Assembly (NCBI GenBank): GCA_043809315.1 | Contig: JAZDDX010000007.1 | Location: 1-64,000 of the forward strand | Reading direction: 5' to 3' | Length of the DNA: 64,000 bases | Source: Pseudomonadota bacterium | GTDB taxonomy: Bacteria; Bdellovibrionota_G; JALEGL01; DATDPG01 | Shown here: in pieces, positions 4,117 through 19,196 of the stretch | Layout: each line of letters begins with the position of its first letter | How positions within the stretch are numbered: the first letter of the stretch is position 1 | Translations under genes and position numbers: made by a program | The notes under the pieces: model-generated | Databases searched by the model: none | Seen by the model: the letters and a program-made list of their open reading frames with translations, nothing else | What the model was told of the DNA's origin: nothing

Positions 4117-4132
4117 TGGCATGCGGGGTGCA
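4117..4132 (+). promoter_or_regulatory. Putative sigma54 (-24/-12) promoter
   Basis: TGGCATGCGGGGTGCA fits GG-N10-GC; ends 13 nt before the ATG at 4146. Confidence 0.55.
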
Positions 4133-4145
4133 GGCATTCTCTTCA

Positions 4146-5759
4146 ATGACCTCTCGTCGGAGCAGTCCCCTCTTTTTCGTAATTCTCGCTCTCTGGATAA
4201 CCCTGGGCCACGCGTCGGCCGCTACATATTACGTGTCGACCTCCGGAAGTGATTCCAACTCTGGAACCGAATCACTGCCGTTCAAGACGATTCAGAAAGG
4301 GGTGAATGTCGCCGTTGCCGGGGACTCGGTTTACGTGCGTGGCGGAACCTACCATGAGGCGGTGATGTTCGGCCGGTCAGGGGAGGAGGGGAAACCGATC
4401 ACGCTGGCCGGGTACCCCGGCGAACGGCCGCTCTTGGACGGCGAATACACCCTGCCGGGAGGGGCGATCGTAGATACCGATCCGAAGACCGGGAACACGA
4501 CCGTGTCGCTCCCGATGATCCATTTCGCCACGTACAGCTACATCGTCGTCCGGAACTTTGAGATCGCCCGGTCGCACGGGGCCGGCATTTACGCCTCGTC
4601 GCACGACAACCTGATTGACGACGTCTGGGTGCGCGAGGTCCGCACGAGCGGGATCAACCTCTACAACTGCCAGCGAAACACCGTGCGGAACAGCCGGATC
4701 TCCGAGAGCGAGAACTGGGCCCCGTACCCCCGCTCCGCCTCCACCCTGAACTGGGGGGGCGGTCTTTCGGCGTGGGGCTGCACAGACGGCCGCTTCGAGG
4801 GGAACACCGTCTTCCACACCTGGGGAGAGGGGATCATCATCATGGGGGCGGAGCGGTTCGTCATCGAGGACAACGTTTCGTATGACAATTTCGGCCTGCA
4901 GATCTACAGCGAGCACTCCGCCTATGTCACGATCGCAAGAAACCTCGTCTACAACACGGGGGATCCTGTCTATCTCCGAGACGGGAATCCTTCCGAAGGG
5001 ATCCTGATCGCCGACGAGGTGGGGATGGATCAACACTTTCCGAACATCTACACGCACGACATCCAGGTGCTGAACAACTTCGTCACGGGGGGAATGTATA
5101 ACTTCAACTGGGCCGGGAACCTGAACGGCAGCACGCGGTGGTGCTGGGAACCGGGCGATCCTGGGGGGCTCGCCAACTCCGTCATCGCGAACAACACGTT
5201 CGTCAACGCCCGCGGGATCGCCTACGACCCGACCGGGATCCGGATCGACGGGGGGGTTCATACCAACGCCCGGTTCGAAAACAACATCATCGTTCAGGAG
5301 ACCGGGACCATCGCCGAGATCTTCAACGACCCGAACCTTCATTTCTCCAACAATCTCTGGTCGCGGACGCCCTCTACGAATGCGTCCAGCCCGAACGATG
5401 TCATCGGCGATCCTCTGCTTGCGAAGACGGGACCGACGGGACCGGGGGAACTTCTTCCCGATTATTTCAAGTTGCTCGTGAACTCCCCCGCCATCGATCA
5501 CGCCAAGGTGATCTCCGAGGTGACGGGAGACTATTTCAAACACCTTCGGAGCACTTCGCCCGATATCGGGGCGCACGAGTACGGAGCGGCTGAGGAAGAT
5601 CCGTCGCCGACGGTGCCACCGAGCGCACATTCATCCGGCGGATCGGGTTGCGCATCGAAGAGTGAACCCAAAGAAGGACTCTGGGTCTTCTGGACGGCTG
5701 TCCTGATGATCCTTTGGCGGAGAGGGCGAAAATCGCCGAATTCGGAAAAGATTTCATAG
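4146..5759 (+). CDS. Secreted right-handed beta-helix (DUF1565/pectate-lyase-like) protein with Cys-TM-basic C-terminal anchor
   Basis: Signal peptide; YYVSTSGSDSNSGTESLPFKTIQ; beta-helix repeats; SPAID and PDIGAHE; ends GGSGC...TM...RRGRK. Confidence 0.8.
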   Translation: MTSRRSSPLFFVILALWITLGHASAATYYVSTSGSDSNSGTESLPFKTIQKGVNVAVAGDSVYVRGGTYHEAVMFGRSGEEGKPITLAGYPGERPLLDGEYTLPGGAIVDTDPKTGNTTVSLPMIHFATYSYIVVRNFEIARSHGAGIYASSHDNLIDDVWVREVRTSGINLYNCQRNTVRNSRISESENWAPYPRSASTLNWGGGLSAWGCTDGRFEGNTVFHTWGEGIIIMGAERFVIEDNVSYDNFGLQIYSEHSAYVTIARNLVYNTGDPVYLRDGNPSEGILIADEVGMDQHFPNIYTHDIQVLNNFVTGGMYNFNWAGNLNGSTRWCWEPGDPGGLANSVIANNTFVNARGIAYDPTGIRIDGGVHTNARFENNIIVQETGTIAEIFNDPNLHFSNNLWSRTPSTNASSPNDVIGDPLLAKTGPTGPGELLPDYFKLLVNSPAIDHAKVISEVTGDYFKHLRSTSPDIGAHEYGAAEEDPSPTVPPSAHSSGGSGCASKSEPKEGLWVFWTAVLMILWRRGRKSPNSEKIS

Positions 5760-5810
5760 TTTTCGAGTGGCCCGACCCACCTATCTGCTTGACATCATTG
5801 GGTTTTGACC

Positions 5811-5826
5811 TGGCACGGCTCCTGCT
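5811..5826 (+). promoter_or_regulatory. Putative sigma54 (-24/-12) promoter
   Basis: TGGCACGGCTCCTGCT, close to consensus TGGCAC-N5-TTGCW; just upstream of the GTG at 5841. Confidence 0.6.
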
Positions 5827-5840
5827 CTGAATATCTCCCT

Positions 5841-7406
5841 GTGAGCCTCTTCCGCCCCATCCCACTCCTGGCCGCGGTTCTGGCTTTTTCTGTTTTCGTG
5901 AATTGCGGCTCCGATCCTGTCGCCAGCATCGATCGTGGCCTCACCACGACCACCCCGACCCCCACCCTTCGGCCGATCATCACGGTGACCCCGAACCCGA
6001 CCCCGACGCCGTTCCCGTCGGGCGGGACAGCGACGCCTACCCCTCGCGCGACCAGCACACCGAGACCGACGGCTACACCGACCCCGACGTCGACCCCCTG
6101 CACTGGATGCACACCGACCCCGACCCCAACGCCGAGACCGACGGCCGTTCCGGGATCTCTCTGGGTTACGGCTTACATCGACCAAATGGCGGCGGGATGT
6201 TTCTCCGGTTCGATGGGCGGCTGGTGGACCCCCGAGTATTGCTACGCCTCCGCGAACGACATCCCGTGGGACACGTTCAGCCACCTGGTCTACATCGGCT
6301 CGGACATCGATTCGAACTATCTGACCAGCACCAGCGCGCTTTTGAACGGGACCGACCACCTAAGCGCCGCTGCTCTCGCCACCGCAGGGCACGCACACGG
6401 AAAACCGGTCCTACTGAGTTTGTTGGCCAACGGAAACACGAACGGGATCAACGCCGCCAAGAACGACCCCAATACACTCGTGAATGATGCTCTGGCCGTC
6501 ATTCTCGCCAATCATTTGGACGGCGTCGATATCGACATCGAGAACGGCAGCGACGGCGGGTGGAGCCTGGTGAATGTTGCGGGGGACAAGGAGGCGATGA
6601 TCAGTCTGATCACCAAGATGCGGACCGCGTTCAACGGGCACAACGCCTTTTACGACGTCACCAAGCCGCTGATCATCACCTGCGCCGGGAGCGCCTGGGA
6701 CGCGAAGCTCTGGGCTGACCCGGCCGTTCACGCGCAGGTCGATCAGGTGAACTTGATGACGTACGGAATGGCCAGCGTGGGTCAGGGGAAGGCCTGGCAT
6801 CACAACGCCGTAAAAAGCCGGAATGCAAGCGGGGTGATCTTCGCACGTGATACCGGCGGAAACGAACTCCCGAGCATTCAATCGGCCTGGGAGATCTTCA
6901 AATCCCGCGCCGCATCGAACGGCTACGGCTCGTTCAACCACCGGATGCTCGGCGTCGGGATCGGAACCTACGGAAGCGGAACGAGCGGCGGAGTCTTGGC
7001 CTCCGACCACCTCAAGGGGATCACCGCCCCCTATCAGGTTTGGTCCACGGCCCCCGCATTCCCGAGCAGCTACTGGTTCACATTCTTCCACACCTGGTCG
7101 CTTTCTCAGATCACGTCCCGGATTCTGGATTTTCACAACTCCTCTGAGATCCTCTATGACACGCAGGCCAAAGCCCCCTATCTGTCGCTCGGTTCGACGC
7201 CGTCCGACGCCCAGTTCATCTCATTCATGAACGGGGAGGAGGCGGCCGATTTCGCGCAGTATTTGAAGGACGAGGGGATGGGGGGCGGGATCGTCTTTCA
7301 ATTGGGATACAGCCACTTGACCGCCACGAACAAGAGCACCGGCGCTGCACGCCCGGACCGCGATCCGTTCATGCGCGCGCTCAAGATGGCGGCCGGAATT
7401 CAGTAA
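5841..7406 (+). CDS. GH18 chitinase-like lipoprotein with Pro/Thr linker
   Basis: Lipobox-like VNC; long PT repeat; catalytic DGVDIDIE; NLMTY; YD..AKAPYL; GMGG. Confidence 0.85.
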   Translation: MSLFRPIPLLAAVLAFSVFVNCGSDPVASIDRGLTTTTPTPTLRPIITVTPNPTPTPFPSGGTATPTPRATSTPRPTATPTPTSTPCTGCTPTPTPTPRPTAVPGSLWVTAYIDQMAAGCFSGSMGGWWTPEYCYASANDIPWDTFSHLVYIGSDIDSNYLTSTSALLNGTDHLSAAALATAGHAHGKPVLLSLLANGNTNGINAAKNDPNTLVNDALAVILANHLDGVDIDIENGSDGGWSLVNVAGDKEAMISLITKMRTAFNGHNAFYDVTKPLIITCAGSAWDAKLWADPAVHAQVDQVNLMTYGMASVGQGKAWHHNAVKSRNASGVIFARDTGGNELPSIQSAWEIFKSRAASNGYGSFNHRMLGVGIGTYGSGTSGGVLASDHLKGITAPYQVWSTAPAFPSSYWFTFFHTWSLSQITSRILDFHNSSEILYDTQAKAPYLSLGSTPSDAQFISFMNGEEAADFAQYLKDEGMGGGIVFQLGYSHLTATNKSTGAARPDRDPFMRALKMAAGIQ

Positions 7407-7418
7407 CAGAAAACAAGA

Positions 7419-7441
7419 TGGCGGAGAGGGCGGGATTCGAA
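7419..7441 (-). repeat. att direct repeat: copy of the tRNA-Ser(GGA) 3' end
   Basis: TGGCGGAGAGGGCGGGATTCGAA, identical to 18412-18434. Confidence 0.9.
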
Positions 7442-7712
7442 AAACCCGTCCCCAACGCCGCGGCATCGTTACGGAAATGAATAACATCAAACCGTTACGC
7501 TTCAAAGACTGCCGCCCATTACCATGAATTCCCGCCTGTAACCGTCCGCGTGTTCCGCAAATGTTCCGCAAGATGCTTATCTCGAGGTTTGAGTTGATCG
7601 TTCAATCACCCACTGTAGGAGAGTGAGTGACTTCTTTCAGTGGTTTCGGCCCCGCGCGCACGCAAAAACCTGAAGAGTTTGGGGCATCTTCTGGTTTTTG
7701 GGTCTCCGGTCA

Positions 7713-7782
7713 AAAATCCCCACCCCCCGCCCTCCACGAGGAATAAGTGGAAAGAGAGAGGCAGTCGGGGGGTGGGGATTTT
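7713..7782. repeat. 17-bp perfect inverted repeat (hairpin)
   Basis: AAAATCCCCACCCCCCG (7713-7729) pairs with CGGGGGGTGGGGATTTT (7766-7782); a second IR at 7663-7676/7687-7700. Confidence 0.8.
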
Positions 7783-7831
7783 CTCCTACGACCTGCGCGC
7801 GGGGCCGGGGTCCAGACGGAGGGGAGGAAAT

Positions 7832-8488
7832 TCAATAAATAAAGGGGAAGAGCCGTTTGGTATGGGATTGGTAAGTCGCGTACTGCTCCCCAAACTTGGC
7901 TGCCAACGCCGTTTCTTCTGCGCCGATCCGCTTGGAATAGGCATACAGAAGGACCGGCCAGGCGACGAGCGAGCAAAGCGGAACGTCGAGAAGAAATGGA
8001 AGAAAGCCCCAGAAAAGGATCGCGCCGGTGTAGCTCGGATGCCGAATATTTCGGTATACACCGTGTTGGATCAGTTGGTGCCCGTCTTGCGTCACAACAG
8101 CGGCTGTGAACCATCTTCCAAGCGTCCGGATGGCAACAACGCGGAAGATCATTCCGCCCGTGGTGAGGATAGCGCCGACGATCGAAAAGGGATCGGCACA
8201 AGGCGGCGAATCGCGGAGTCGCCGATCCCACAGATAAACTCCATACGAAAGCGCGCAGACGAAGTACGCGGCGACCTGCAGGATCAACAGCGTCGAACGG
8301 TCTTCGTGGGTTGCCTGTTCCTTCCCAAGCTTGGCGTAGCGAAGATCTGGTTGGCTTCCGATCAGGACGACGCCGAGGACAAAAAAGAGCCAGAAACGCC
8401 AGTCGATCAGAGGGGTTCGAACGAAGATCGCAGGGATCCCAAGAAGAAGCGCCGGGATGAAGACGGCTTTGAGCCACCTGGGAAGCAC
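7832..8488 (-). CDS. Isoprenylcysteine carboxyl methyltransferase (ICMT/Ste14) family membrane protein
   Basis: TLGRWF...HQLIQHGVYRNIRHPSYTG...RIGAEE..L..KFGEQY..Y...TKRLFPFIY. Confidence 0.88.
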   Translation of the reverse strand: MLPRWLKAVFIPALLLGIPAIFVRTPLIDWRFWLFFVLGVVLIGSQPDLRYAKLGKEQATHEDRSTLLILQVAAYFVCALSYGVYLWDRRLRDSPPCADPFSIVGAILTTGGMIFRVVAIRTLGRWFTAAVVTQDGHQLIQHGVYRNIRHPSYTGAILFWGFLPFLLDVPLCSLVAWPVLLYAYSKRIGAEETALAAKFGEQYATYQSHTKRLFPFIY

Positions 8489-8553
8489 GGGAGAACTCTA
8501 TCTTATTGTGATCGTTGGGAAAAGAAGATACACAGACGATGGAGGGCGACTCA

Positions 8554-11500
8554 ATGTCTGCCGGTGTGACTGATCTCTTTTCCGCGAGTTTCTTTGCGAA
8601 CGCCGCCCTCTTTTCCCGTCGAGAAATCACGACGATCGGGAAACAGACCGAGATTCAAAAATTCTTCAGCCGCCTGTTCGTGGAGGATCCGTCCATCAAG
8701 ATCTCGCTCCTCAAGAACGGGATGGTCACGGAAACCACGATCTCCGCCGTACAAGGGCCGGAATTCGTCGAAGGAGTTCGGACCACTACGGAAAAAAAGG
8801 GTCCATTCTCCGTCGTGCTTCGTTGTCTCAACGAGGTCTATATCTTCGAACTCGGCGGGCCGGAAAGCGGCCTTCCGGAAAGGATCTACAAGGTCCACCG
8901 GCGGTTTTCCGATCGGTACTCGACGGGGGAGTTCAGCATAACGGCGAAGCTGCGCGACCCGAAGGGCAACTCCTTTTCAGGGAAATTGGTCGATTATTCC
9001 GACCGAGGATTTGGTTTTCTCTGCCCGACCGAGGCGGAGCAGGTTCCCCTTTTGGAGGAGATCGAGGCCGAGATCGCCGGCCAAGCTCCAGTAACTTTCA
9101 AGGGGGAGGTTGCGCATCTCACGGCAGACCCCGGGAAGAAGGATGTCCGGGTCGGTCTTCGGCTCACCCGCGCGGCCGATCCGTCGGCGCTCGCGGATTT
9201 CCAGCGTTCCCTTCTTCCGAAGCTTTTCCCGGCCGTCCGGGAGGCGCGTTCCGACGCCGATTTCGACCGCGTGGCCGATCTCCTCACCGTGATGGCGGGG
9301 GTGGCGCGTCTTCCTAACCGCGCCAACCTGATCGCTCTCTGGAAAAGCCTCGGCCAGGGTCCGGATCGCCCGGCCGAGGTCTTTCTCGAACAGCGCGCAG
9401 GAAAATCCGTCGCAACGATGACGGCCGCGCAGGTTTATTCCCGGACTTGCTTTCTCCACACGTTCGCCATCGAAAAGAAGGAGGCGTTCGCCCTCCCCGT
9501 CGAGATGTTCCATCGGATGCGGGATTTCGCCATGCGGGAGAAGGGAGCGGAGTTCGTCTGCGGGATGTGGCCGGCGGGGCACCGCTTCATGGAGCGGTAC
9601 TACGCCGAATTCGTCCGGCGCGATTTCGATCCGGCCGACCACCATTTCGAGACGGTGGAGGTGACAAGATTCACCTCTTCGGGGAATGGGAAGCGGAGTC
9701 CCAGGTTCGATGTCGCGACGGCGACCCGGGAGGAGGAGGCTACGGCCTGGGAGACGATCCGATCGACAGCTAGCCCGGTCCTGTTCGAAGCCGCCGACTG
9801 GGGAGAGAAAGATCTGTCGCTCCAGAAAGTCGGGGAGGCTTATCGGAAAGCGGGCCACCTCCGAAGCCGGGAAATCGTGGCGCTACGGGAGAAAGGGAAG
9901 CTCCTGGCCTTCGCGACGGTCGAATATTCGTCCGGCGGCGCGGGGGTTTTCGGCCTGGCGAACAGCTTCCGGATCTATTTCTGCGAGGGATCGGCGGTCG
10001 AGCAGCCAGCCATCGGGACCGCATTGATCACCGATGTGTTGGGACGGTACGCCGATCGGAAGATCCCGACCGGTTGTCTTTACGGAAACGAAAAGTTGGA
10101 TTGGCTCAAGGGGATTCCTGGGTTTGAAGCGGCTCTCGGCTCGGTGTCTCTTTGGATCGTGCGTCGGACACGGGCGAAGGCGTTTTTGCGACACCTGGAG
10201 CGGGTCAACTGGGAGCTTAGCCTGTTCCGCGGCGGCAAAACGCGGGTCCGCCCTTCCCTTCTCCAAGCGTTCGATTACCAGTCCGAACCGTTCAAACCGC
10301 GGAAGTGCATGCGACTGGAGGATGCGGCCGGGGTGGATGGAGTCTCGGGACGTCTGAAACGGGCGGGGGAGTCGGCCTGCCCGGTGCGCCTGGCGAACCT
10401 CGATACGTACGGCGCTTGTTTGATCCCGGAACAGCCGTTCAATGTGGAAGTCGGCGACGACTTCACGCTGGAGCTCAAGCTCGGGAATGCCCCTGAGATG
10501 ACGCTACAAGCGTTGGTGCGGTTTTCCGAGTCGCGGATCGCGCCCGGATTTCAGGCCCAGGCATTGGTGATTGGAATCGAATTCATCGGCGCTCCAATTG
10601 GCCATCTCGAAAGCATTCGCGACTTTGTGTTTTCACGCTTGAATCCAGAGGTTAAGTTGTTTTGCGCTGGCGATTTTGACCCCTTAGCTGAGTTGTTGCA
10701 ACGATCCAAATATCTCGACTACTTTGAATCCACCGATCATGAACGGATTATTCGAGAGGCAAAGCCAACTTTCGACGCGATCAACAAGCTTTACCCTGAT
10801 TTAGCGCGAGTCACCGTTCTTCGTTCGGATCGACTGGTCATTGGAAGTCATTCCTTCTTTCGAATGAACTCGCGAACGTGGCAGCTCCATCAATTAGCCG
10901 TTGATCCCGATTTGTCGCTTTACAAGAAAAAGATACCGACAAAGATCATCCTTCAAAGCACTTTTGAATATCTTTGCCTCGATCCAAGGATTGAGTACTT
11001 CGTCACGTATTTCAACGACGATGCAGCCATAGCTCGGGCCTATTTTGAAGCGGGGCAGAGTCACCACAATGCACGTGATGTGGCATTCGTGCCGACCAGG
11101 TGGACGCCTATCGAGCATATTGACGCCGCTCGCCCCCCTATCGCGTCTCGCAGCGCAGAGGCCACTTCCGAGGAGGTGGCTGCGATTTCTGACTATTTGA
11201 CGGCGATTGTTCCAAAACTTGAATATGAATCTCTTGAGTATTCGGACCCACTGCTTCGCAAATTCTTGAAACAGTGGACCAGTGAACCGATTGATCGTGT
11301 GAGGAAGGTTTTTGTTGCGCGGGACAAGAAAGGCGAAATTCGGGTATTTGTGCTCGCTAATCTATGTCCCCCTAGCCTAAACTTTCTTGGGGTGCTCGAT
11401 AATTTTCGTCTCTTTGAGGTGCCCTGGTGCAACGTCGACACGCGGCAGATGCGCCTAGATCTTGTTTCTCACACGCTCGACTACTATAAAAAGGCCGGCC

Positions 11501-11691
11501 GGGAACGGGCGTACTTTGAGATGGATGAACGTGATCCGGCAGACTACTCAGCTATCGGAATCAGCCCGGTTGGCCGAACCTGGAGACTAATTGCAAACAA
11601 GAGTGCCTTTCTGACAGCCCTTCAATTCTTCCTGGGCCGATACGGCCGACTCGAAGAGCGATTGATAGCGCAAGAGGGTAAGGGAAGATGA
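8554..11691 (+). CDS. Large protein with two tandem [PilZ + GNAT-like] modules
   Basis: PilZ1 RRFSDR/DYSDRG, PilZ2 RKCMR/NLDTYG; duplicated segments YSRTCFLHTFAI and NSRTWQLHQLAV; RBS GGAGG before 8554. The GNAT fold is an inference. Confidence 0.65.
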   Translation: MSAGVTDLFSASFFANAALFSRREITTIGKQTEIQKFFSRLFVEDPSIKISLLKNGMVTETTISAVQGPEFVEGVRTTTEKKGPFSVVLRCLNEVYIFELGGPESGLPERIYKVHRRFSDRYSTGEFSITAKLRDPKGNSFSGKLVDYSDRGFGFLCPTEAEQVPLLEEIEAEIAGQAPVTFKGEVAHLTADPGKKDVRVGLRLTRAADPSALADFQRSLLPKLFPAVREARSDADFDRVADLLTVMAGVARLPNRANLIALWKSLGQGPDRPAEVFLEQRAGKSVATMTAAQVYSRTCFLHTFAIEKKEAFALPVEMFHRMRDFAMREKGAEFVCGMWPAGHRFMERYYAEFVRRDFDPADHHFETVEVTRFTSSGNGKRSPRFDVATATREEEATAWETIRSTASPVLFEAADWGEKDLSLQKVGEAYRKAGHLRSREIVALREKGKLLAFATVEYSSGGAGVFGLANSFRIYFCEGSAVEQPAIGTALITDVLGRYADRKIPTGCLYGNEKLDWLKGIPGFEAALGSVSLWIVRRTRAKAFLRHLERVNWELSLFRGGKTRVRPSLLQAFDYQSEPFKPRKCMRLEDAAGVDGVSGRLKRAGESACPVRLANLDTYGACLIPEQPFNVEVGDDFTLELKLGNAPEMTLQALVRFSESRIAPGFQAQALVIGIEFIGAPIGHLESIRDFVFSRLNPEVKLFCAGDFDPLAELLQRSKYLDYFESTDHERIIREAKPTFDAINKLYPDLARVTVLRSDRLVIGSHSFFRMNSRTWQLHQLAVDPDLSLYKKKIPTKIILQSTFEYLCLDPRIEYFVTYFNDDAAIARAYFEAGQSHHNARDVAFVPTRWTPIEHIDAARPPIASRSAEATSEEVAAISDYLTAIVPKLEYESLEYSDPLLRKFLKQWTSEPIDRVRKVFVARDKKGEIRVFVLANLCPPSLNFLGVLDNFRLFEVPWCNVDTRQMRLDLVSHTLDYYKKAGRERAYFEMDERDPADYSAIGISPVGRTWRLIANKSAFLTALQFFLGRYGRLEERLIAQEGKGR

Positions 11692-14600
11692 TGACTGCGA
11701 CTTTAGCAAGCAGGATCCGACTTGGCTTTACCTGGCTAGCGATCGGTCTGGCGGCTCTTTCATCTCCGCCAGCCCATGCCGGTCAAAATATCGACCGACA
11801 CGGTTTGTTCCAATCGTTACCCTCGGCAGTCCGTTATCATGAAGGGGATTCAACGGCCTGGAAAGACCCTGCTTTCGACGATCAGTCATGGCCGCAAGTC
11901 AAGATCCCAGCGGATTTGAACTTATCCAAAGCGAACTCGGACGGACGCTACTGGTATCGAATCACATTCGTTGGCTTTCACGACGATATGCGCGATCCAG
12001 CTGTGTTTCTCGGTCAGATTGCCGATATCGACGAGACTTATCTAAATGGATGCCACATTGGGCAGACCGGTGATTTCTATCCCCACGGAAATGCACCCCT
12101 TCATCTGAACCGTATCTATCGAATTCCTGAAAAGTGCTTTTTCAAGGGCGGTCGCAATGTTCTGGCGATCCGTGGGCAAAGCATTTGGGGCCTGCATGCA
12201 GGAATCTACAAGGGACAGGCAGGGATTGGGGAGTATCGCGCATTCAAGAGGGCTGCTGATCGAGACTATTTTTTCGGAACAACCCTCAGCCTTCTGATGG
12301 CGTTTTTCAGTATCGTAATGGGTCTTTACCATCTGTTTCTTTATTTCCGGCTGCCGGTCAAGCGAGCTAATCTTCTGTACTTCTTCTTCTCCCTGACGAG
12401 CAGCTATTTCATGGTCTCTTTGGGCCTTAAGACGGTCGAATGGTTCAGTAGCCCAATCTTAGTGATTCGACTTCACGCCCTCGCTGGCATCGCAACCATC
12501 ATGCTTCTTCACGTCTATTGTCTGATCGCCACAAAGAGATCGTACAGACGATTTGATTATGGGCTCTTTGCTTTGAACGCGTTGGTCTTCCTGGCCATCC
12601 TGGTACCAGGGAACTATCATCGCGTATATGGGATCTTCAACGGTTGGTACCCGATCGTATTGGTCTCGCTCGTTTATCTAGCCACAATATCCATTCAAGC
12701 GGTTCATCACGGCAGACGAGACCTCTTGTTTTTGGCCAGTGCGCTGGTCTTTGGCTTTGGAACGGCTTTTCTCGATGTCTTATACGGACTTGGAATTGTT
12801 AAGTTCGGCCAGGTATCGGCGGTCGGATTCTTTGTACTCAATCTAGGAATCATGTTCTCGCTTGCCTATGAATTTACCGGCGCTTATCTCAACGTGGAGC
12901 AGAAGGTCGCGGACCGTACGCAGGATTTGGCCATCGCCAATGAACATCTCCGCGATCTGGAAAAGATGAAGGCGAAGTTCTTCACGAACGTCTCGCACGA
13001 TTTCAAGACACCTCTTGCGATCGCCTTTTCGCACATCGAGGAAGCCCGAAGGCAAGCCAGCGAGGCGATCCGGGCCCCCTTGGAAGGGGCCGGGAACGCC
13101 CTCAACAAGCTCCTGGGAATGGTGACCGACCTCCTCGACACCATGCGGGCGGATTCGGGAGCATTAAAGCTCCGCTGGGAAACCGCTTCGCCGGCCGATC
13201 TCGTCCGTGTCTGGGCCTCTTCCTACAACTCCCTTTGCGCCCAAAAGGGGCTCGCGCTCGACGTTCAAATCGATGTGCCGGACACACTCAGGATCCCCCT
13301 CGACGTTGCGAAAATAGAACGGGTCTTTGCAAACCTGATGTCGAACGCCATCAAATTCACTGACTCCGGGTCGATCCGCGTACGGGTTCGGAGCAACGCC
13401 GCCAACATTCATTTCGAGATTTCCGACTCCGGCCCCGGAATCCCGAAGGAGGAACGCGAAAGAATCTTCGATCGGTTCTACCAGGGGTTCAACACGGCGC
13501 TGCGGGACCATGGTGGTTCGGGGATCGGCCTCTCGTTCGTCAAGGATGTCGTTGACGCCCACAGTGGAAGAGTCTGGGTCGACGAAGCCAAGCCATCAGG
13601 GAGCACCTTCACCGTCGCGCTTCCGATCGCTCAGGATGTCGAGATCACCGGCGAGCATAGGATCAGCGGCGACGACCTCAGATTGATCCCCCCCAAGGGA
13701 TCGGTCGACGTCCCCTACCCTCCCTCGGAGCCTCCCATTGTCGACCCGAAGCGCCCGAAGGTCCTGGTCGTCGAGGACAATCCGGAGATCGCCCAAGCCC
13801 TTTTCAATTCCCTGCGGAACGACTTCGTCCTCTATTTCGCGCCGAACGGCGCCGAGGCGATTAAGATTCTCGGACGGACCCGTCCCGACGGGATCCTCAC
13901 CGACCTCATGATGCCGGTGATGGATGGAACCGAACTCTTGAAAAAGCTCCGCTCGGAACCGAAGTGGAAAGGAATCCCCGTCGTGATCCTCTCCTCCAAA
14001 GGGGAAGACGACGACATCGTCGAGCATTTGAAGCTCGGCGCTCAGGATTACGTTTCCAAACCGTTCCGCAGAGACGTCCTGATCGCTCGGCTAAGCGCCC
14101 AGATCGAGCGCCGGAGATTGTTCGAACGCCTTTTGAACGCTGACAAGATGGTGACCATGGGGCTTCTTTCGTCCGGGATTTCACACGAGTTACGGAACCC
14201 GTTAGGCCAGGCCCAGACAAGCGTCGCCTTTGTGACGGCGACCGTCCGTGCAGCGCCAGAGACGCCGCCCAAGTTGGTGGCGGCGGCCGAACTTGCCGAG
14301 CGCGCCATCACCCGGATGCGTGGCATCGTCGAAAGCATGCGCGGTTTCGCCTCGGGGTCCCAGCAACGAGGGGAGTTGAACCTCAAGGAACTAATCGAAG
14401 AGGCCGTCACGCTCGTGGCGGGGAAGGCCAAAAAGAGAGGGGCGCAGGTCACCGTGATGCGGGCCGACCCTGTCAAACTCCTGGGATACTCGACCCTCCA
14501 CCAGGTTCTGGTGAACCTTCTCGACAACGCGATCGACGCCTGCGAGGAGTTCAAGGGGGAGATCGGCATCTCCTGCGAGCAAACGAACGACGGAAGCCGG

Positions 14601-14873
14601 ATCACGGTCAAGGACAACGGCTCGGGAATCCGCCCCGATGTCCTGCCGCATATCTTCGATCCATACATGACGACCAAACCGCCGGATCAGGGGACCGGCC
14701 TCGGGCTCTTCATCGTCCGGCAGATCGTCGAGCTCCAACATGGCGGAAAGATCTCCGTCGACTCCACGATCGGACGGGGGGCCCTCTTCTCGGTTGAGCT
14801 CCCGGCCGAGGCGCCCGTTATGGAGGTCGAGGGGGTCAAACTCTTTCACGGCTACGACTTGGGCGTGAGCTGA
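11688..14873 (+). CDS. Hybrid sensor histidine kinase: sugar-binding jelly-roll + 7TM (DISM-like) + HisKA/HATPase + REC + second HisKA/HATPase
   Basis: WKDPAFDDQSW, LGQIADIDETYLNG; about 7 TM helices; SHDFKTPL/NAIKFT/DSGPGI; VVEDN..DLMMPVMDG; SHELRNPL/NAIDA/GTGLGL; ATGA overlap with the upstream gene. Confidence 0.9.
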   Translation: MMTATLASRIRLGFTWLAIGLAALSSPPAHAGQNIDRHGLFQSLPSAVRYHEGDSTAWKDPAFDDQSWPQVKIPADLNLSKANSDGRYWYRITFVGFHDDMRDPAVFLGQIADIDETYLNGCHIGQTGDFYPHGNAPLHLNRIYRIPEKCFFKGGRNVLAIRGQSIWGLHAGIYKGQAGIGEYRAFKRAADRDYFFGTTLSLLMAFFSIVMGLYHLFLYFRLPVKRANLLYFFFSLTSSYFMVSLGLKTVEWFSSPILVIRLHALAGIATIMLLHVYCLIATKRSYRRFDYGLFALNALVFLAILVPGNYHRVYGIFNGWYPIVLVSLVYLATISIQAVHHGRRDLLFLASALVFGFGTAFLDVLYGLGIVKFGQVSAVGFFVLNLGIMFSLAYEFTGAYLNVEQKVADRTQDLAIANEHLRDLEKMKAKFFTNVSHDFKTPLAIAFSHIEEARRQASEAIRAPLEGAGNALNKLLGMVTDLLDTMRADSGALKLRWETASPADLVRVWASSYNSLCAQKGLALDVQIDVPDTLRIPLDVAKIERVFANLMSNAIKFTDSGSIRVRVRSNAANIHFEISDSGPGIPKEERERIFDRFYQGFNTALRDHGGSGIGLSFVKDVVDAHSGRVWVDEAKPSGSTFTVALPIAQDVEITGEHRISGDDLRLIPPKGSVDVPYPPSEPPIVDPKRPKVLVVEDNPEIAQALFNSLRNDFVLYFAPNGAEAIKILGRTRPDGILTDLMMPVMDGTELLKKLRSEPKWKGIPVVILSSKGEDDDIVEHLKLGAQDYVSKPFRRDVLIARLSAQIERRRLFERLLNADKMVTMGLLSSGISHELRNPLGQAQTSVAFVTATVRAAPETPPKLVAAAELAERAITRMRGIVESMRGFASGSQQRGELNLKELIEEAVTLVAGKAKKRGAQVTVMRADPVKLLGYSTLHQVLVNLLDNAIDACEEFKGEIGISCEQTNDGSRITVKDNGSGIRPDVLPHIFDPYMTTKPPDQGTGLGLFIVRQIVELQHGGKISVDSTIGRGALFSVELPAEAPVMEVEGVKLFHGYDLGVS

Positions 14874-14874
14874 C

Positions 14875-15309
14875 ATGAAAACCCGACCGCTTCGAGTTCT
14901 GGTTCTGGACGATGAGATCGACAATATCCGGATCTTGGAGGTCGTCCTCGGTGAGAGGTGGAAGATCCGAGGGATCACGGATGTCGACGATCTGTACCAG
15001 GGGCGGGTCCGTCTCGAGGATTATGACGTTCTCTTTCTCGATCTCGTTCTGGTGGCATCCAAGGACTGGCAGGTGACCCCAACAGGCCCGGATCCGAAAT
15101 TGGGATACCAGGTCCTCCAGTGGGTGACCCACAAGATCAAGGGGTACCCGGTCGTGGTCCTAAGCGCCGCCCTGAACGAAGAACGCTTGAAGATGTTCCA
15201 AGAGGCCGCGGCAAAGAATGTTCTTTGTGTCCCGAAACCTGCGGACCTTCATGCGCCCGAATTCCAGGAGATGGTCGAAAGGTTCGTCGCTTCCGTTCCG
15301 AGAAACTGA
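14875..15309 (+). CDS. Single-domain response regulator
   Basis: VLVLDDE, FLDL (phospho-Asp), VVLSA, KP. Confidence 0.8.
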   Translation: MKTRPLRVLVLDDEIDNIRILEVVLGERWKIRGITDVDDLYQGRVRLEDYDVLFLDLVLVASKDWQVTPTGPDPKLGYQVLQWVTHKIKGYPVVVLSAALNEERLKMFQEAAAKNVLCVPKPADLHAPEFQEMVERFVASVPRN

Positions 15310-15387
15310 CGTCCCGGTCCGCAAAGTTCCGCAAATCAGGATCTTGAGACGTTCAACCCGAATGATTTCCAGGACTTAAAATTTTTT

Positions 15388-15403
15388 TGGCGGAGAGGGC
15401 GGG
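15388..15403 (-). repeat. att direct repeat (B/A junction): tRNA-Ser(GGA) 3' end copy
   Basis: TGGCGGAGAGGGCGGG, identical to 18412-18427. Confidence 0.88.
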
Positions 15404-15908
15404 GATCTAATCCGCGCCTCGTAACCACTCCAAGAAAAAGGACAATACTGTCACATCAATAGGATGTCGATTCGACATCTCATCCGAGCACATCGGTTTA
15501 CACGGATTCACAGGGTCACCTGTTACCGAAATGTTACCGCAATCAATCATTCCCCTCCTCCACCCCCTGCTCCTGTTTGTTGGCAACGAAAAGGCGGAGA
15601 GAACTCAAGCTGAAATACACGATTCCCACGCAGTTCTTTCAGAGTTCACTGGAAAGAACTCCGTAGGAACTCAGGTCAAAACGATAAGTGTTCAAATCCA
15701 CACCTCAAAGGACGGGCCCCTGGAACTTTTTCCTCTCGCATTTTCCGCCGACCACGCCCCCCCTACCATGTAAGAAAGTGATTTGGGGGGTCGTGGTCGG
15801 TGCAAGAATGCTCGTGGTTTGGGTAAGGGGCACGAAGGAGCTCTGTGATTCAAGAATAGGGTCTTCAGGTTGATAGAAGTTGGATAGTTTTGCCGATGGT
15901 TTGAAGTT
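15404..15908. repeat. About 500-bp non-coding element backbone, paralogous to about 29020-29557
   Basis: Shared blocks such as AACTTTTTCCTCTCGCATTTTCCGCCGACCAC, GTGGTCGGTGCAAGAATGCTCG and GGTCACCTGTTACCGAAATGTTACCG. Confidence 0.9.
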
Positions 15909-16749
15909 CGTCCCAGGCCTGAATAAAGCGGAAATGTTCAAAGTCGTTCGATCTCAGTACGGGGCGGAGATCGGTTGTTGTTTGTCGCTCGAATTCGAGA
16001 TGCCGGGCTTCGCTAACGTCGATTGGCGGAGTCCCCGGTATGGCCAGCTTCTTCAAGACGAGTTCACGGAAGCTTTCTGCCTCGATATCGAAGAGCTTCG
16101 AAGTCAGCGCTCGGTGGATGTCGTAAAGGTCCCGAATGGCCGGCGTTTCCCGCGTAAGTGCTGCCCGCAGCTTTTCTGCATAGGCCTCCTGCCTTGAGAG
16201 AGCTGTGGCCGTGAATGGCTCGATTACTGGCTTTTGACGGAACGGATCTTGAAGGAGGGTTTTCAGGTTCTGCGGCCTTGGTTCAAACACCTTTTCCCGC
16301 AACCCCACCTGAAACAGGAGGGTTTGAGGTTCCGGCCCAAGGATCGAGCGATACTCCAGAATCCCGTTGTATTGCTGAGATTCATTGGACCCCCTTAGGT
16401 CTTCCCGGACCTTCACTCCGGGTATCCGCTCGGGCAGATCTGAAAAGATCGCCTTTGGTTGTCCGGCCAACTTTTTTCTCTCCGCGCGTTTGGTTTCGTC
16501 CCGAACGGAGATCGAAAAATCGAGGTCCTCGCTCAGCCGGGAAAAGTCCGTGTACGCCTTGTTGAGAAGAGTTCCTCCCTTGAACACAAGGGAAGTTTCC
16601 AAGGTTTCATACACAACCTTAAGAACGACGGAGCAGAAATAATCTTTTTCGATCAGTTCTGGAGCGAATTTCTCGTTTGCGGCGGTGGAAGAAACGGCCG
16701 AACGGAAGAACTCCGTATCCTCATGTGGCCAGGGCTGGGATTTCACCAT
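15865..16749 (-). CDS. AbiEii-family nucleotidyltransferase toxin (type IV TA)
   Basis: IEKDY, LVFKGGTLLNK, RLSEDLDF, AEKLRA, RDLYD. Confidence 0.9.
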   Translation of the reverse strand: MVKSQPWPHEDTEFFRSAVSSTAANEKFAPELIEKDYFCSVVLKVVYETLETSLVFKGGTLLNKAYTDFSRLSEDLDFSISVRDETKRAERKKLAGQPKAIFSDLPERIPGVKVREDLRGSNESQQYNGILEYRSILGPEPQTLLFQVGLREKVFEPRPQNLKTLLQDPFRQKPVIEPFTATALSRQEAYAEKLRAALTRETPAIRDLYDIHRALTSKLFDIEAESFRELVLKKLAIPGTPPIDVSEARHLEFERQTTTDLRPVLRSNDFEHFRFIQAWDELQTIGKTIQLLST

Positions 16750-17554
16750 TTACAATTACCCCCCACTTACGGTCCAAAAATCCCCGCGCGGGTTTCCCGG
16801 GAATCAGAGGAATCAAGGATGTTGCCCGAGGAATCGCCGCTCGGAGTTTGTTCAACCATCGTGGATTCACCTTCAGTGAATCCAGGACATAGCCCAGGCG
16901 ACGTTTCGTGCCAACGTTTCCATAGGCAAGGGTCATTTCAACGAGTTTCCGTATTGTGTTTCGATCACTCTGCTTGCTGGCTATCCAGCTATATGCACGA
17001 GGTATGGTCCCGAAAATTTCGTAGTCATAAACGGCGTCCAGGAGCGTGCGTGGAAGTGAACTTATGGAGATGCTGATCGGTGTGCCGGTTTCGGTTGTGA
17101 TTGAAAAGAGTTCGTCGCCGCCGAGACGTTCCGGGGCAACTCGAATAAAAACAAAGCTCAGGCCTGCGATCGTTCTTTTGCCCGAAAGCACGGTGTTGAA
17201 AACGGTGATTTCGTTCGGTACTTGGGTTTCAAGGCTATACCTTTGGAACGCCGCCATTCCCGTTACTTGGTACTTGGCGCTTTGTTCCTCCATTAGTGCG
17301 ACCAGGATTCGGTACGGAGAGGGAAGCCACCTACCACCCGCTGGGATTCCATTGGGGACGAGATAAAGGCCCCGTCTCACCTGAATAAGCAGCCCTTTTC
17401 GACCCATGTTGCGAAAGAGATTGGCCTCCTGGATTCGGGTAAGGCCCAGCGCCTGGACGAGATCCCCCGTTCGAACCTTTTCGGTCCGTTTCACCTGTAC
17501 CCAGGACAGAAATCGGGTCTCCAGGGAGCCGAGCTTCAGTGAGTTAGACTTCAT
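16721..17554 (-). CDS. AbiEi-family antitoxin/transcription regulator
   Basis: KGLLIQVRRGLY, A...YSLETQVP, RTLLDAV, RRLGYVL, WGVIVN; overlaps abiEii. Confidence 0.85.
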   Translation of the reverse strand: MKSNSLKLGSLETRFLSWVQVKRTEKVRTGDLVQALGLTRIQEANLFRNMGRKGLLIQVRRGLYLVPNGIPAGGRWLPSPYRILVALMEEQSAKYQVTGMAAFQRYSLETQVPNEITVFNTVLSGKRTIAGLSFVFIRVAPERLGGDELFSITTETGTPISISISSLPRTLLDAVYDYEIFGTIPRAYSWIASKQSDRNTIRKLVEMTLAYGNVGTKRRLGYVLDSLKVNPRWLNKLRAAIPRATSLIPLIPGKPARGFLDRKWGVIVNGEIPALAT

Positions 17555-17667
17555 TGTATATTAGTATATTCGTCTATTAAACGAATTACAAGATATAGCA
17601 TGTATTCACGGACACAAAGTTCGACACGTCACGTAGACATAGATATGAGGTTGATAGATCAAAAAGA

Positions 17668-18330
17668 GTGGAAGAAATGGAACAAAATAGCTCCAGGAAC
17701 GGTCTTTCGCGTTGGCAACGGCTCGGAGCTGTTGCGGGTGGAGCAACGGCATTGATTCTTGGAGTCTCCTATACCCTCTTCGGCGCATATACAGCCGGAA
17801 ACGCCATCGGCACGGTAACAATTCTTATCTTTGCGGTAGTTCCTTCTGCCGTGATTTCGTCGGTTGTCGGGACATTGGGAGGTTGGAGTGTTGCCACCAT
17901 AGCCTGGGTTTGTTACCGAATCTTCCGACGAGATTTTAGCAATCAAGAACGATTAGAATTCAAATGGCTTCAGGTCGCGGTTGCTATCGTAATAGCCGTC
18001 GTTCTTGTTCTGGGAGCCATGCGAGTTCAGGATGACTTGAGGTGGCAACGTATCGCAGCATCCAAGACATCTACAGAACGTGAACTACGAGATTCGTATC
18101 AAAGGGCACTCTCAGGGACTTCTCTGGAAGATCAAATCTTCATTACCGTGTTTAGTGTGTTGTTTCCCGGTTCCATGTCACACCAAGAACCGTATCAAGA
18201 TCGGGGAATCATGTTCAATCTTGCTGATAATCCCAATTGCCCGAAAGACGTCTTGTTGGAAATGACTAGATCCAATGATCCTCGAATCCGATCCCGCGCA
18301 GAGGCAAAAGCCGGAACAACTTCGAAGTAG
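17668..18330 (+). CDS. Hypothetical membrane protein (3 TM, C-terminal HEAT-like LAxNPNCP repeat)
   Basis: Hydrophobic N-terminal half; LADNPNCPKDVL; sits where island C has its integrase. Confidence 0.65.
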   Translation: MEEMEQNSSRNGLSRWQRLGAVAGGATALILGVSYTLFGAYTAGNAIGTVTILIFAVVPSAVISSVVGTLGGWSVATIAWVCYRIFRRDFSNQERLEFKWLQVAVAIVIAVVLVLGAMRVQDDLRWQRIAASKTSTERELRDSYQRALSGTSLEDQIFITVFSVLFPGSMSHQEPYQDRGIMFNLADNPNCPKDVLLEMTRSNDPRIRSRAEAKAGTTSK

Positions 18331-18411
18331 GGAAGACCTGTTACCGTTTGTTACCGAAACGGTGTTTTGGGTAGTTGCGATCTGAATGTTTTCAGGGAGT
18401 TAAAACTTTTT

Positions 18412-18505
18412 TGGCGGAGAGGGCGGGATTCGAACCCGCGAGACGCTGTTTAGGACGTCTACCCGCTTTCCAGGCGAGCTCCTTCAACCACTCGGACACC
18501 TCTCC
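18412..18505 (-). tRNA. tRNA-Ser(GGA)
   Basis: GGAGAGGTGTCCGAGTGG...CTCGC-CT GGA AA-GCGGG, long variable arm, TTCGAATCC, CCA. Confidence 0.95.
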
Positions 18506-18557
18506 GCAAGAGTCGACCGCGTCTTGTTACGTGAAATAGGTCGGGTCGACAAGTTGA

Positions 18558-19196
18558 TCAGATGTACTTCTCGATCGTCTTCAGGATGTCGATCCGGTCG
18601 ATCAGATCGGTGATGTAGTCGAGGCGGTCGCTCTCGAGAACGAGCGTCGGCGATCGCTTGTACGAAGCGAACCAGCTTTCGTAGAGGCGGTTGAGCGCCC
18701 GGAGATAGGTGACCGGGATCTGCTGCTCCTCCGGGCGGGCCCGGATCTTGATCCGCTTCCGGATCGTCCGGATCGAAGCTCGCAGATAGATGAGGAGGTC
18801 CGGCGGCTCGATCGCCCGGAGCGCCGTCTGATAGAAGTCCTGGTACAGCCCCCAGTCCCGCTTGTTGATGAACCCGCGCTGGTGGAGATTCGCCGCGAAG
18901 ATCTCGGCGTCCTCGAAGATCGTCCGGTCCTGGACCACCGTCTGGCGGGTCCGCCGCAGATCGAGATCCTGGTGGATCCGAAACTTCTGGGTGAGGAAAA
19001 AAAGCTGGGAGTGGAACGCCCAGCGTTTCATGTCGGCGTAAAAATCGACCAGGAAAGGGTTCCGCGCGTTCGGCTCGAAGAACGGCTCCACCTCGTACGT
19101 CCGGCAGATGAAATCGACGAGCGTACTCTTGCCGCACCCGATGTTTCCGGCAACAGCGATGTATGTCGGACGGCCCAAGCCGGACCAGTAAACCAC
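18558..19196 (-). CDS. Deoxynucleoside kinase
   Basis: IAVAGNIGCGKST P-loop, QDRTIFED, PDLLIYL; start uncertain. Confidence 0.9.
   Translation of the reverse strand: MVYWSGLGRPTYIAVAGNIGCGKSTLVDFICRTYEVEPFFEPNARNPFLVDFYADMKRWAFHSQLFFLTQKFRIHQDLDLRRTRQTVVQDRTIFEDAEIFAANLHQRGFINKRDWGLYQDFYQTALRAIEPPDLLIYLRASIRTIRKRIKIRARPEEQQIPVTYLRALNRLYESWFASYKRSPTLVLESDRLDYITDLIDRIDILKTIEKYI

Follow-up and report, generated by a model that had tools for sequence, protein, structure and literature searches.

The DNA analysed here, a stretch of 64,000 nt that is referred to as a whole as the window, belongs to a genome of the Bdellovibrionota (G000; 2.42 Mb; 44 contigs). It harbors an operon in which a gene for a protein with PilZ and GNAT-type domains (gene A) is followed by a gene for a 7TMR-DISM hybrid histidine kinase (gene B). 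The 3′ end of gene A and the sensor-coding 5′ end of gene B share a block of low GC content, and the subject of this analysis is the relation of this block to the exchange of sensor modules between kinases. The features concerned are as follows, where GC3 is the GC content at third codon positions and AF2 stands for AlphaFold2:

8515..11691, + strand: gene A, an open reading frame (ORF) of 1058 amino acids from a TTG start
10300..10584, + strand: β-barrel of the second PilZ domain (PilZ2) of gene A, with AF2 strands up to model residue ~95; the last part of normal GC before the block
10573..12896, + strand: low-GC3 block (GC3 0.54 vs 0.76; GC 0.50), covering module X2 of gene A and, in gene B, the signal peptide, the periplasmic domain and the seven helices
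10612..11682, + strand: X2, the C-terminal tandem-GNAT-fold module of gene A, non-canonical; Foldseek and VIA on the AF2 model
11688..14873, + strand: gene B, 1061 amino acids with sensor, HisKA-HATPase, receiver (REC) and second kinase; Pfam
11826..12233, + strand: periplasmic β-sandwich of gene B (residues 47-182), sugar-binding-like; AF2 and Foldseek
12234..12896, + strand: seven-helix membrane domain of gene B (AF2 helices 183-419), with the end motif AYLNVEQKVxDRTxDL

The translated product of gene A, whose database copy (P0003) starts eight codons further in and counts 1050 amino acids, is composed of an N-terminal region, PilZ1 (residues 129-224), the tandem GNAT X1 (235-590), PilZ2 (~596-690) and the tandem GNAT X2 (~700-1056). 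Two stretches match the Pfam PilZ domain (PF07238; E-value: 1.9e-10; 41.4 bits, gathering score: 22.5), the better at residues 129-224, and a profile of the family matches the solved PilZ proteins VCA0042 and YcgR. PilZ1 carries both RxxxR (R130-R134) and [D/N]xSxxG (D160-S162-G165), which we take to be the motifs for the binding of cyclic di-GMP (c-di-GMP). PilZ2 keeps RxxxR (R596-R600), but Asp replaces Ser in the second motif (N628-D630-G633), with R596, R600 and G633 being invariant across the alignment. In the AF2 model of residues 596-1058 (predicted local distance difference test, pLDDT: 93.1), a tandem GNAT fold comes after a PilZ barrel. Foldseek matches the X2 model to VipF (6wqc; E-value: 8.7e-11), as well as to 7q3a and 2wpw (MAB_4324, clavulanate tandem GNAT) and N-myristoyltransferases, with E-values for the tandem-GNAT matches of 8.7e-11 to 2e-9, while VIA on model residues 116-440 gives Z-scores of 15.6 to 9emd (root-mean-square deviation, rmsd: 4.0; 269 aligned) and 14.4 to 2wpx. 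Hidden Markov models (HMMs) of X1 and X2 each match both halves of gene A, which therefore represents a unit of PilZ plus tandem GNAT twice over. No Pfam GNAT match (Acetyltransf_1) was found in gene A at E ≤ 0.1, nor anything beyond PilZ in Pfam or NCBIfam, and only the G000 paralog on contig C35 (G000_C35) matches Acetyltransf_1 (E-value: 1.5e-5; 25.7 bits, cut-off: 20.7). The motif Q/RxxGxG/A, the acyl-coenzyme A (CoA) pyrophosphate loop between strand 4 and helix 3 of GNATs, is missing from both GNAT halves in all 20 modules aligned, so that acyl-CoA catalysis is doubtful while membership of the GNAT fold stands. X2 is the best-conserved segment of gene A (36% identity between families vs 17-19% for the rest). 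A metagenome protein of 462 amino acids (P0009), 45% identical to residues 622-1050 and starting at the conserved MRLE motif, may be a stand-alone protein of PilZ2 and X2 or a truncated gene call.

The ATG of gene B overlaps the stop of gene A by 4 nt (ATGA, 11688-11691). Its product contains a Pfam 7TMR-DISM_7TM domain at residues 207-394 (38.1 bits; cut-off: 29), followed by HisKA (428-491; E-value: 3.2e-15), HATPase_c (539-648; 6.5e-59), receiver (692-802; 8.4e-26) and HATPase_c_5 (937-1025) domains; no NCBIfam equivalog reaches its cut-off. In the AF2 model of the first 420 residues (pLDDT: 90.1), a signal helix precedes the β-sandwich and seven helices. The best Foldseek matches of the sandwich are N-terminal domains of GH2 family glycosidases (E-value: 5.6e-7; ~157 columns; rmsd: 2.9), and this sugar-binding fold presumably represents the DISMED2 type, with no DISMED domain being listed in the Pfam scan of gene B. 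The database forms of gene B and its ortholog in the related genome G001 are 851 and 915 amino acids long, compared with 1061 and 1080 for the full ORFs, and both start inside the low-GC block. The full-length ORFs are conserved and fold well (window 11688-12320; G001 locus L013 from 6619), and the compositional step probably misleads gene callers at the kinase start. A recurring sub-genic GC3 step of this kind serves as a practical warning for public gene calls.

A preliminary description of the locus had placed a low-GC block at 10560-12890, between the end of PilZ2 and the end of the 7TM region and with both reading frames intact. The seven hand counts of GC per 60-nt line on which it drew (41, 43, 26, 21, 26, 26 and 40) are exact. 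GC amounts to 0.499 at 10560-12890, to 0.608 and 0.605 in the remainder of genes A and B, respectively, and to a mean of 0.582 in the window and 0.597 in the genome. GC3 is ~0.52 within the block and ~0.75 outside, which places the drop at synonymous sites, and at residues shared with G001 the GC content of fourfold sites is 0.46-0.49 inside and 0.78-0.81 outside. A maximum-likelihood fit of two change-points sets the edges at residue 686 of gene A (support interval: 676-691) and residue 403 of gene B (388-428), that is, at 10573 and 12896, within 13 and 6 nt of the first placement. Twice the log-likelihood gain (2ΔlnL) is 107, while the top value of a repeat over 20 codon permutations is 14. 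These edges map to the end of the PilZ2 barrel in the AF2 model and to the end of helix 7 (Pfam and AF2), both ORFs are open, and GC3 departs clearly from uniformity (0.54 inside vs 0.76 outside), so the earlier outline of the block stands. GC of 0.505 or less is found in just 0.05% of 7747 overlapping 2.4 kb windows of G000, placing the block in the lowest-GC class, and its coding strand is T-rich (AT skew down to -0.31). No Rfam match was found over window positions 7300-15600, and a repeat search returned no repeats flanking the block, with just two short matches of 14-16 nt.

An artefact of amino acid composition was rejected, as the 100-codon windows of the block have residuals in the lowest 0.2-2% when GC3 is regressed on GC1+2, a test whose underlying negative GC12/GC3 correlation may itself carry an artefact of over-long N-terminal ORF extensions, and fourfold sites agree. 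A general effect of membrane proteins was also rejected, with GC3 being 0.78 in the transmembrane segments of G000 and 0.73 in soluble C-termini. Across 37 G000 proteins with at least four helices and a soluble tail the mean GC3 difference is -0.005; the two extremes are the C35 paralog and gene B, and the paralog on contig C17 ranks fifth. These values also bear on selection on mRNA or translation speed, by which slow codons would assist membrane insertion of the receptor or AU-rich RNA would serve targeting or decay. Such selection would accord with the T-rich coding strand and with the exported domain and seven helices that take up half of the block. However, low GC3 is not a property of membrane domains in G000, where the three paralogs alone are conspicuous among the 37 proteins, the block also spans ~370 codons of a cytoplasmic domain of gene A, and several of the pairs described below lack a block. 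We consider this explanation quite improbable. Elsewhere in the genome, GC also drops to 0.52 or below on contigs C22 (27-52 kb), C23 (2-10 kb) and C17 (131-138 kb), in stretches that belong to the 14 lowest of G000 and are probably islands.

The protein family is rare: a search of 1.84 billion representatives yields 197 proteins at E ≤ 0.001. The order is represented by 15 species genomes in the database, five of which have a double-module A gene beside a B gene. G000 has further pairs on C35 and C17, making three in total, and a search of five genomes of the family with the sensor part of gene B identified 14 places, two to three per genome. Metagenome contigs, scanned once with alignment A1 and once with P0006, yielded no relative, while the scan of genome contigs returned only the locus of G004, a single chromosome record of 2.92 Mb. 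The comparisons that follow concern 15 A-like/B-like pairs from seven genomes, with the partial locus G002_C100, at a contig end, excluded; the B gene of G003_C5 is short (712 amino acids) and sits on a very long branch.

The sensor and kinase trees of the 15 B-like proteins are in strong conflict. Kinase and sensor identities are 75% and 25% for G000_C17 vs G002_C35, 66% and 21% for G004_a vs G004_c, and 62% and 23% for G002_C150 vs G003_C3, with sharp identity steps at residues ~385-400 in all three. In the approximately unbiased (AU) test, sensor data reject these three kinase pairs (p: 2.5e-8, 1.1e-6 and 1.0e-9) and kinase data reject the sensor-defined clade S_a (ΔlnL: 298; p: 0.029). The same pattern is seen between the congeners G009 and G007 (RpoB identity: 96%), whose loci are in synteny and whose flanking genes share 74% and 84% identity. 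Their hybrid kinases share ~88% protein identity from residue ~387 onwards (80.7% DNA identity over 2008 nt), while the sensors share ~20%, and the switch falls at residues ~387-393 in four G009/G007 comparisons. Upstream of the kinase, G009 has an ICMT-like methyltransferase gene, a double-module A gene and an S_a sensor, and G007 a FAD-binding gene and another sensor. A second, shorter 7TM kinase of this locus shows the reciprocal pattern, in that sensor S1 belongs to the short kinase of G009 but to the hybrid kinase of G007, and the S_a-like sensor is placed the other way round (L015, G009:C2, 2698-11952; L051, G007:C12, 3619-11004). Sensors of the closest relatives, including three metagenome proteins, are 46-57% identical and kinases 31-61%. 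By kinase, G000 and G001 are the pair with the highest similarity (61%), but by sensor they rank lowest among the four closest relatives (49%; AU p: 0.043). Sensor and kinase halves have repeatedly been re-assorted, always at the end of helix 7, and recombination at the 3′ edge of the block is strongly supported by these trees and alignments. The recombination proposed in the preliminary description is therefore supported at this edge, and the predicted incongruence of inner and outer segments is strong in gene B (AU p: 1e-6 to 1e-9). The junction is placed within ~10-20 residues in seven comparisons, including the congeners, providing a clean natural example of the rebuilding of two-component sensors. 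Shuffling of sensor domains is a general phenomenon among paralogous histidine kinases, whose unrelated input domains point to recombination close to the border between membrane and kinase parts. What sets the present case apart is that the junction is mapped, that the enzyme gene upstream accompanies the sensor and that the unit bears a compositional mark. The paralogous kinases of G004 (L014 and L047) have a fourfold-site identity of 0.34 (0.27 expected) in the 66%-identical kinase part, with sensors 21% identical; this similarity may reflect intragenomic gene conversion.

The GNAT gene travels with the sensor, not with the kinase. All five S_a sensors adjoin a double-module A gene, and both S_x sensors a single-module A gene of the X1 type (HMM E-values: 1e-56 to 1e-60). 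The N-terminal PilZ regions of the A-like genes fall into the same groups as the sensors. Among identity matrices, the last GNAT correlates with the sensor (Spearman: 0.67) but not with the kinase (0.22), and the sensor correlates little with the kinase (0.15), in line with the co-variation that had been proposed between the enzyme-like gene and the sensor. Neighboring DNA stays linked under a single recurrent junction, and co-inheritance alone is therefore no proof of a functional tie.

Sensor GC3 is lower than kinase GC3 in 13 of the 15 pairs (Fisher p < 0.005 in nine) and significantly higher in none. Change-points were fitted in the 13 co-oriented pairs, leaving out the divergent pairs G002_C150 and G004_c, and in seven a junction-centred block of low GC3 beats all 20 permutations; an eighth pair, G000_C17, fits instead as a kinase segment of high GC3. 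The 3′ edge lies within ~20 codons of the end of helix 7 in 5/7 blocks, and the 5′ edge is the start of the last tandem GNAT in four and the gene start in two. The G001 ortholog (60% identity) has a block from residue 731 of its A protein (716-766) to residue 332 of its B protein (302-387; both in G001 numbering), with GC3 of 0.56 vs 0.70 and 2ΔlnL of 44, and the support intervals of its edges and those of G000 do not overlap. Steps in GC3 vary among paralogs of one genome (G004: -0.02, -0.09 and -0.20; G003: -0.03, -0.22 and -0.10) and are absent from both G002 pairs. An assembly chimera, in which contigs of two populations were joined at conserved sequence, would be compatible with the 44 contigs of G000 and with a 3′ edge where conserved kinase sequence begins. 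It is scarcely credible, given that the frames are open, that the proteins fold at pLDDT 90-93 and that the pattern occurs at three G000 loci, in G001, in G003 and in the single chromosome record of G004.

The RpoB proteins of G000 and G001 are 76% identical, and their fourfold sites match about as often as composition predicts, both within and outside the block as well as in rpoB (observed vs expected: 0.24 vs 0.25 and 0.21 vs 0.25 in the inner segments; 0.37 vs 0.35 in rpoB). Synonymous sites are thus saturated, GC3 should be at its local equilibrium, and the shared block calls for separate later events or a lasting local force. The single exchange event envisaged in the preliminary description does not fit this saturation, nor the similar blocks of the G001 ortholog and of two paralogous pairs in G000. 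A single old import, received by the ancestor that G000 and G001 share and still ameliorating, would explain why both orthologs carry the block at nearly the same place. We reject it as highly improbable on account of the saturated fourfold sites, at which GC3 should long have equilibrated, and block edges that differ and the same pattern at paralogous loci further argue against it.

We favour, with a probability of roughly 0.5, the reading that the block is a two-domain unit with its own history inside a modular signalling operon, and that its AT-rich segment came by replacement from an AT-richer relative. The segment would have been imported at this locus by a replacement of this kind, with the right crossover at the conserved helix-7/kinase junction and the left at the PilZ2/GNAT domain border. 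Such replacement would have occurred separately in the G000 lineage, the G001 lineage and the paralogs, and recently enough for synonymous sites not to have drifted to the GC3 of the host. Import is favoured because the process of replacement is directly seen in the family, because the size of the drop matches other low-GC islands of G000, such as that of the AbiE pair at 15865-17554, because the steps are unequal between paralogs of a single genome and neither G002 pair has one, and because the edges differ between G000 and G001. Furthermore, GC amounts to 33-38% in most of the order, and loci from three other families (f3, f4 and f5) have a GC content of 33-38%, so that most possible donors are AT-richer.

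Several observations weigh against this reading. No donor was found among 5.8 billion clusters and 1.84 billion representatives, the best matches of the inner segment being 55-61% identical. Identity between G000 and G001 does not step at either edge (inside vs outside: 61% vs 58% in gene A; 49% vs 61% in gene B), as under plain vertical descent. The GC3 step is always downward, even in genomes of 32% GC (-0.05 and -0.04, not significant), which fits a steady local force too. At the 5′ edge, trees of gene A residues 121-685 and 686-1058 (10 proteins) agree in their main split, and their differences are confined to the four closest relatives; this is not a clear conflict (AU p: 0.056 and 0.034, post hoc), and between G009 and G007 the replacement unit is the whole A gene together with the ICMT-like gene. 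Recombination at the 5′ edge as read from these trees is borderline, and the joint exchange of GNAT domain and receptor proposed earlier is correspondingly less clear on this side than at the 3′ edge. Finally, the clades for the AU tests were chosen after the trees and identity tables had been seen, and the 15 pairs, from only seven genomes, include kin that do not count as independent.

The main rival to import is a steady local equilibrium, in which a co-adapted unit of GNAT and sensor recombines little (for example because divergent alleles are kept), GC-biased gene conversion or selection for GC-ending codons is weaker, and GC3 sinks to an AT-biased equilibrium. In keeping with it, recombining bacterial genes are reported to have a higher GC3 (PMC4450053). 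The downward direction in 13 of 15 pairs, never significantly reversed, agrees with this force, as do an effect that is greatest in the highest-GC genomes, edges that both fall at domain borders in several independent pairs, and a block shared by G000 and G001 despite saturated fourfold sites and with no identity step between them. Yet the drop of 22 points is much larger than the effects reported for gene conversion in bacteria, and there is no step in both G002 pairs, G003_C3 and G004_a, while other paralogs of G003 and G004 have one. On balance we hold a local equilibrium to be a rather doubtful, if serious, competitor.

Two further genes complete the module:

7832..8488, - strand: ICMT/PEMT-family membrane methyltransferase gene, 218 amino acids, divergent from gene A (Pfam ICMT; E-value: 8.3e-17; 61.8 bits, cut-off: 24)
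14875..15309, + strand: small receiver-like gene, 144 amino acids, 1 nt past gene B; the last gene of the module

Homologues of the former adjoin an A-like gene at five other loci (G001_C104, G007_a and G000_C17 by tblastn; G000_C35 and G009_a by Pfam). The receiver-like gene matches Response_reg in Pfam below the cut-off (E-value: 5.7e-4), and a homologue lies directly 3′ of the B-like gene in six of the 14 loci searched by tblastn. The operon thus consists of a divergent ICMT-like methyltransferase gene, the PilZ-tandem-GNAT gene, the 7TMR-DISM hybrid kinase gene and the small receiver-like gene, and occurs in two to three paralogous copies per genome in a family of the Bdellovibrionota. No description of this four-part module was found in the papers that literature searches returned. 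It would link c-di-GMP with a phosphorelay in the Bdellovibrionota.

Going by analogy alone, c-di-GMP bound by the PilZ domains would gate acyl transfer that works together with the adjoining receptor, and this receptor would sense an external ligand, perhaps a carbohydrate, and feed the phosphorelay; the sugar-binding look of its outer domain points to such an external ligand. Self-signalling in the manner of agr, with the GNAT module, perhaps together with the ICMT-like methyltransferase, making the signal that the adjoining receptor senses and with specificities exchanged together, appears unlikely. The enzyme gene and sensor are co-inherited while the kinase is swapped, two to three paralogous sets run in parallel per genome and a membrane methyltransferase is the conserved neighbor, all as expected of such a system. 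But linkage under one junction explains the co-inheritance with no functional tie, conservation within gene A is highest in X2, the module has no exporter, peptide gene or AgrB-like protein, the CoA loop motif is missing from both GNAT halves, and the sensor outer domain looks sugar-binding. The module might, in a bolder version that we hold to be similarly unlikely, be a self-contained maker and receiver of signals gated by c-di-GMP. Gene A and the ICMT-like enzyme would make an acylated and methylated small molecule for the seven-helix receptor, in two to three orthogonal channels per genome, maker and receptor input forming one specificity cassette on an interchangeable kinase chassis and the AT-rich block being the footprint of exchange or of long-kept alleles. 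If enzyme and receptor are functionally matched, they would represent a new kind of signalling pair; if not, the locus is a well-mapped case of modular recombination.

The variable region of staphylococcal agr consists of the 3′ part of agrB, agrD and the 5′ part of agrC. The likeness of the present locus to it is one of geometry only, in that a stretch reaches from the final part of one gene into the sensor-coding beginning of the kinase gene behind it, and its history departs from that of the conserved kinase region. An agr-like content, as the preliminary description had surmised, is not borne out. There is no agr component, neither a precursor peptide gene between genes A and B nor an AgrB-type membrane peptidase, and gene B is of the 7TMR-DISM and not the AgrC type. 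The 4-nt overlap of the gene A stop with the gene B start leaves no room for a peptide gene. In the between-species data available, sensors diverge faster than kinases and re-assort, while X2, as the best-conserved part of gene A, would be the reverse of a hypervariable agr-type segment. Gene B resembles RetS and LadS of Pseudomonas in its periplasmic β-sandwich, seven helices and kinase with receiver domain or domains. It differs from them in a second kinase module after the receiver and in its pairing with PilZ-GNAT, ICMT-like and small receiver-like genes.

The nearest studied protein to gene A, by description, is PixB of Myxococcus xanthus. According to the PixB report (PMC8316039), this protein combines two PilZ domains with a GNAT acetyltransferase domain, and binding of c-di-GMP is seen in vitro. 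Its PilZ domains retain RxxxR, whereas Ser is missing from their second motif. PixB exerts its effect on a signalling pathway, and the two genes downstream of it may belong to the same operon. Gene A resembles this description in the fusion of PilZ to a GNAT-type domain and in the loss of this Ser in PilZ2. Unlike in PixB, its GNAT is a tandem without the CoA loop motif, the unit of PilZ and GNAT is duplicated and the neighboring gene codes for a 7TM hybrid kinase. The mycobacterial cAMP-gated GNAT protein acetyltransferases, as cited there (PMC8316039), fuse a domain for the binding of cyclic nucleotides with GNAT. They are similar to gene A in combining a second-messenger domain with GNAT and in the control of acyl transfer, which is predicted for gene A; gene A differs in having PilZ in place of the cyclic-nucleotide-binding domain and in its tandem GNAT.

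A + strand ORF at 7640-8569, over the methyltransferase gene, was set aside as it looks spurious, its translation being rich in Arg, Lys, Gly and Pro. Right after the receiver-like gene, a second low-GC stretch (15301-18900; GC 0.52) contains an AbiEii toxin and AbiEi antitoxin pair (15865-17554, - strand). Upstream of the module, window positions 4128-7406 encode a right-handed β-helix protein and a GH18 family glycosidase, a hint, in combination with the sugar-binding-like sensor domain, of a carbohydrate theme.

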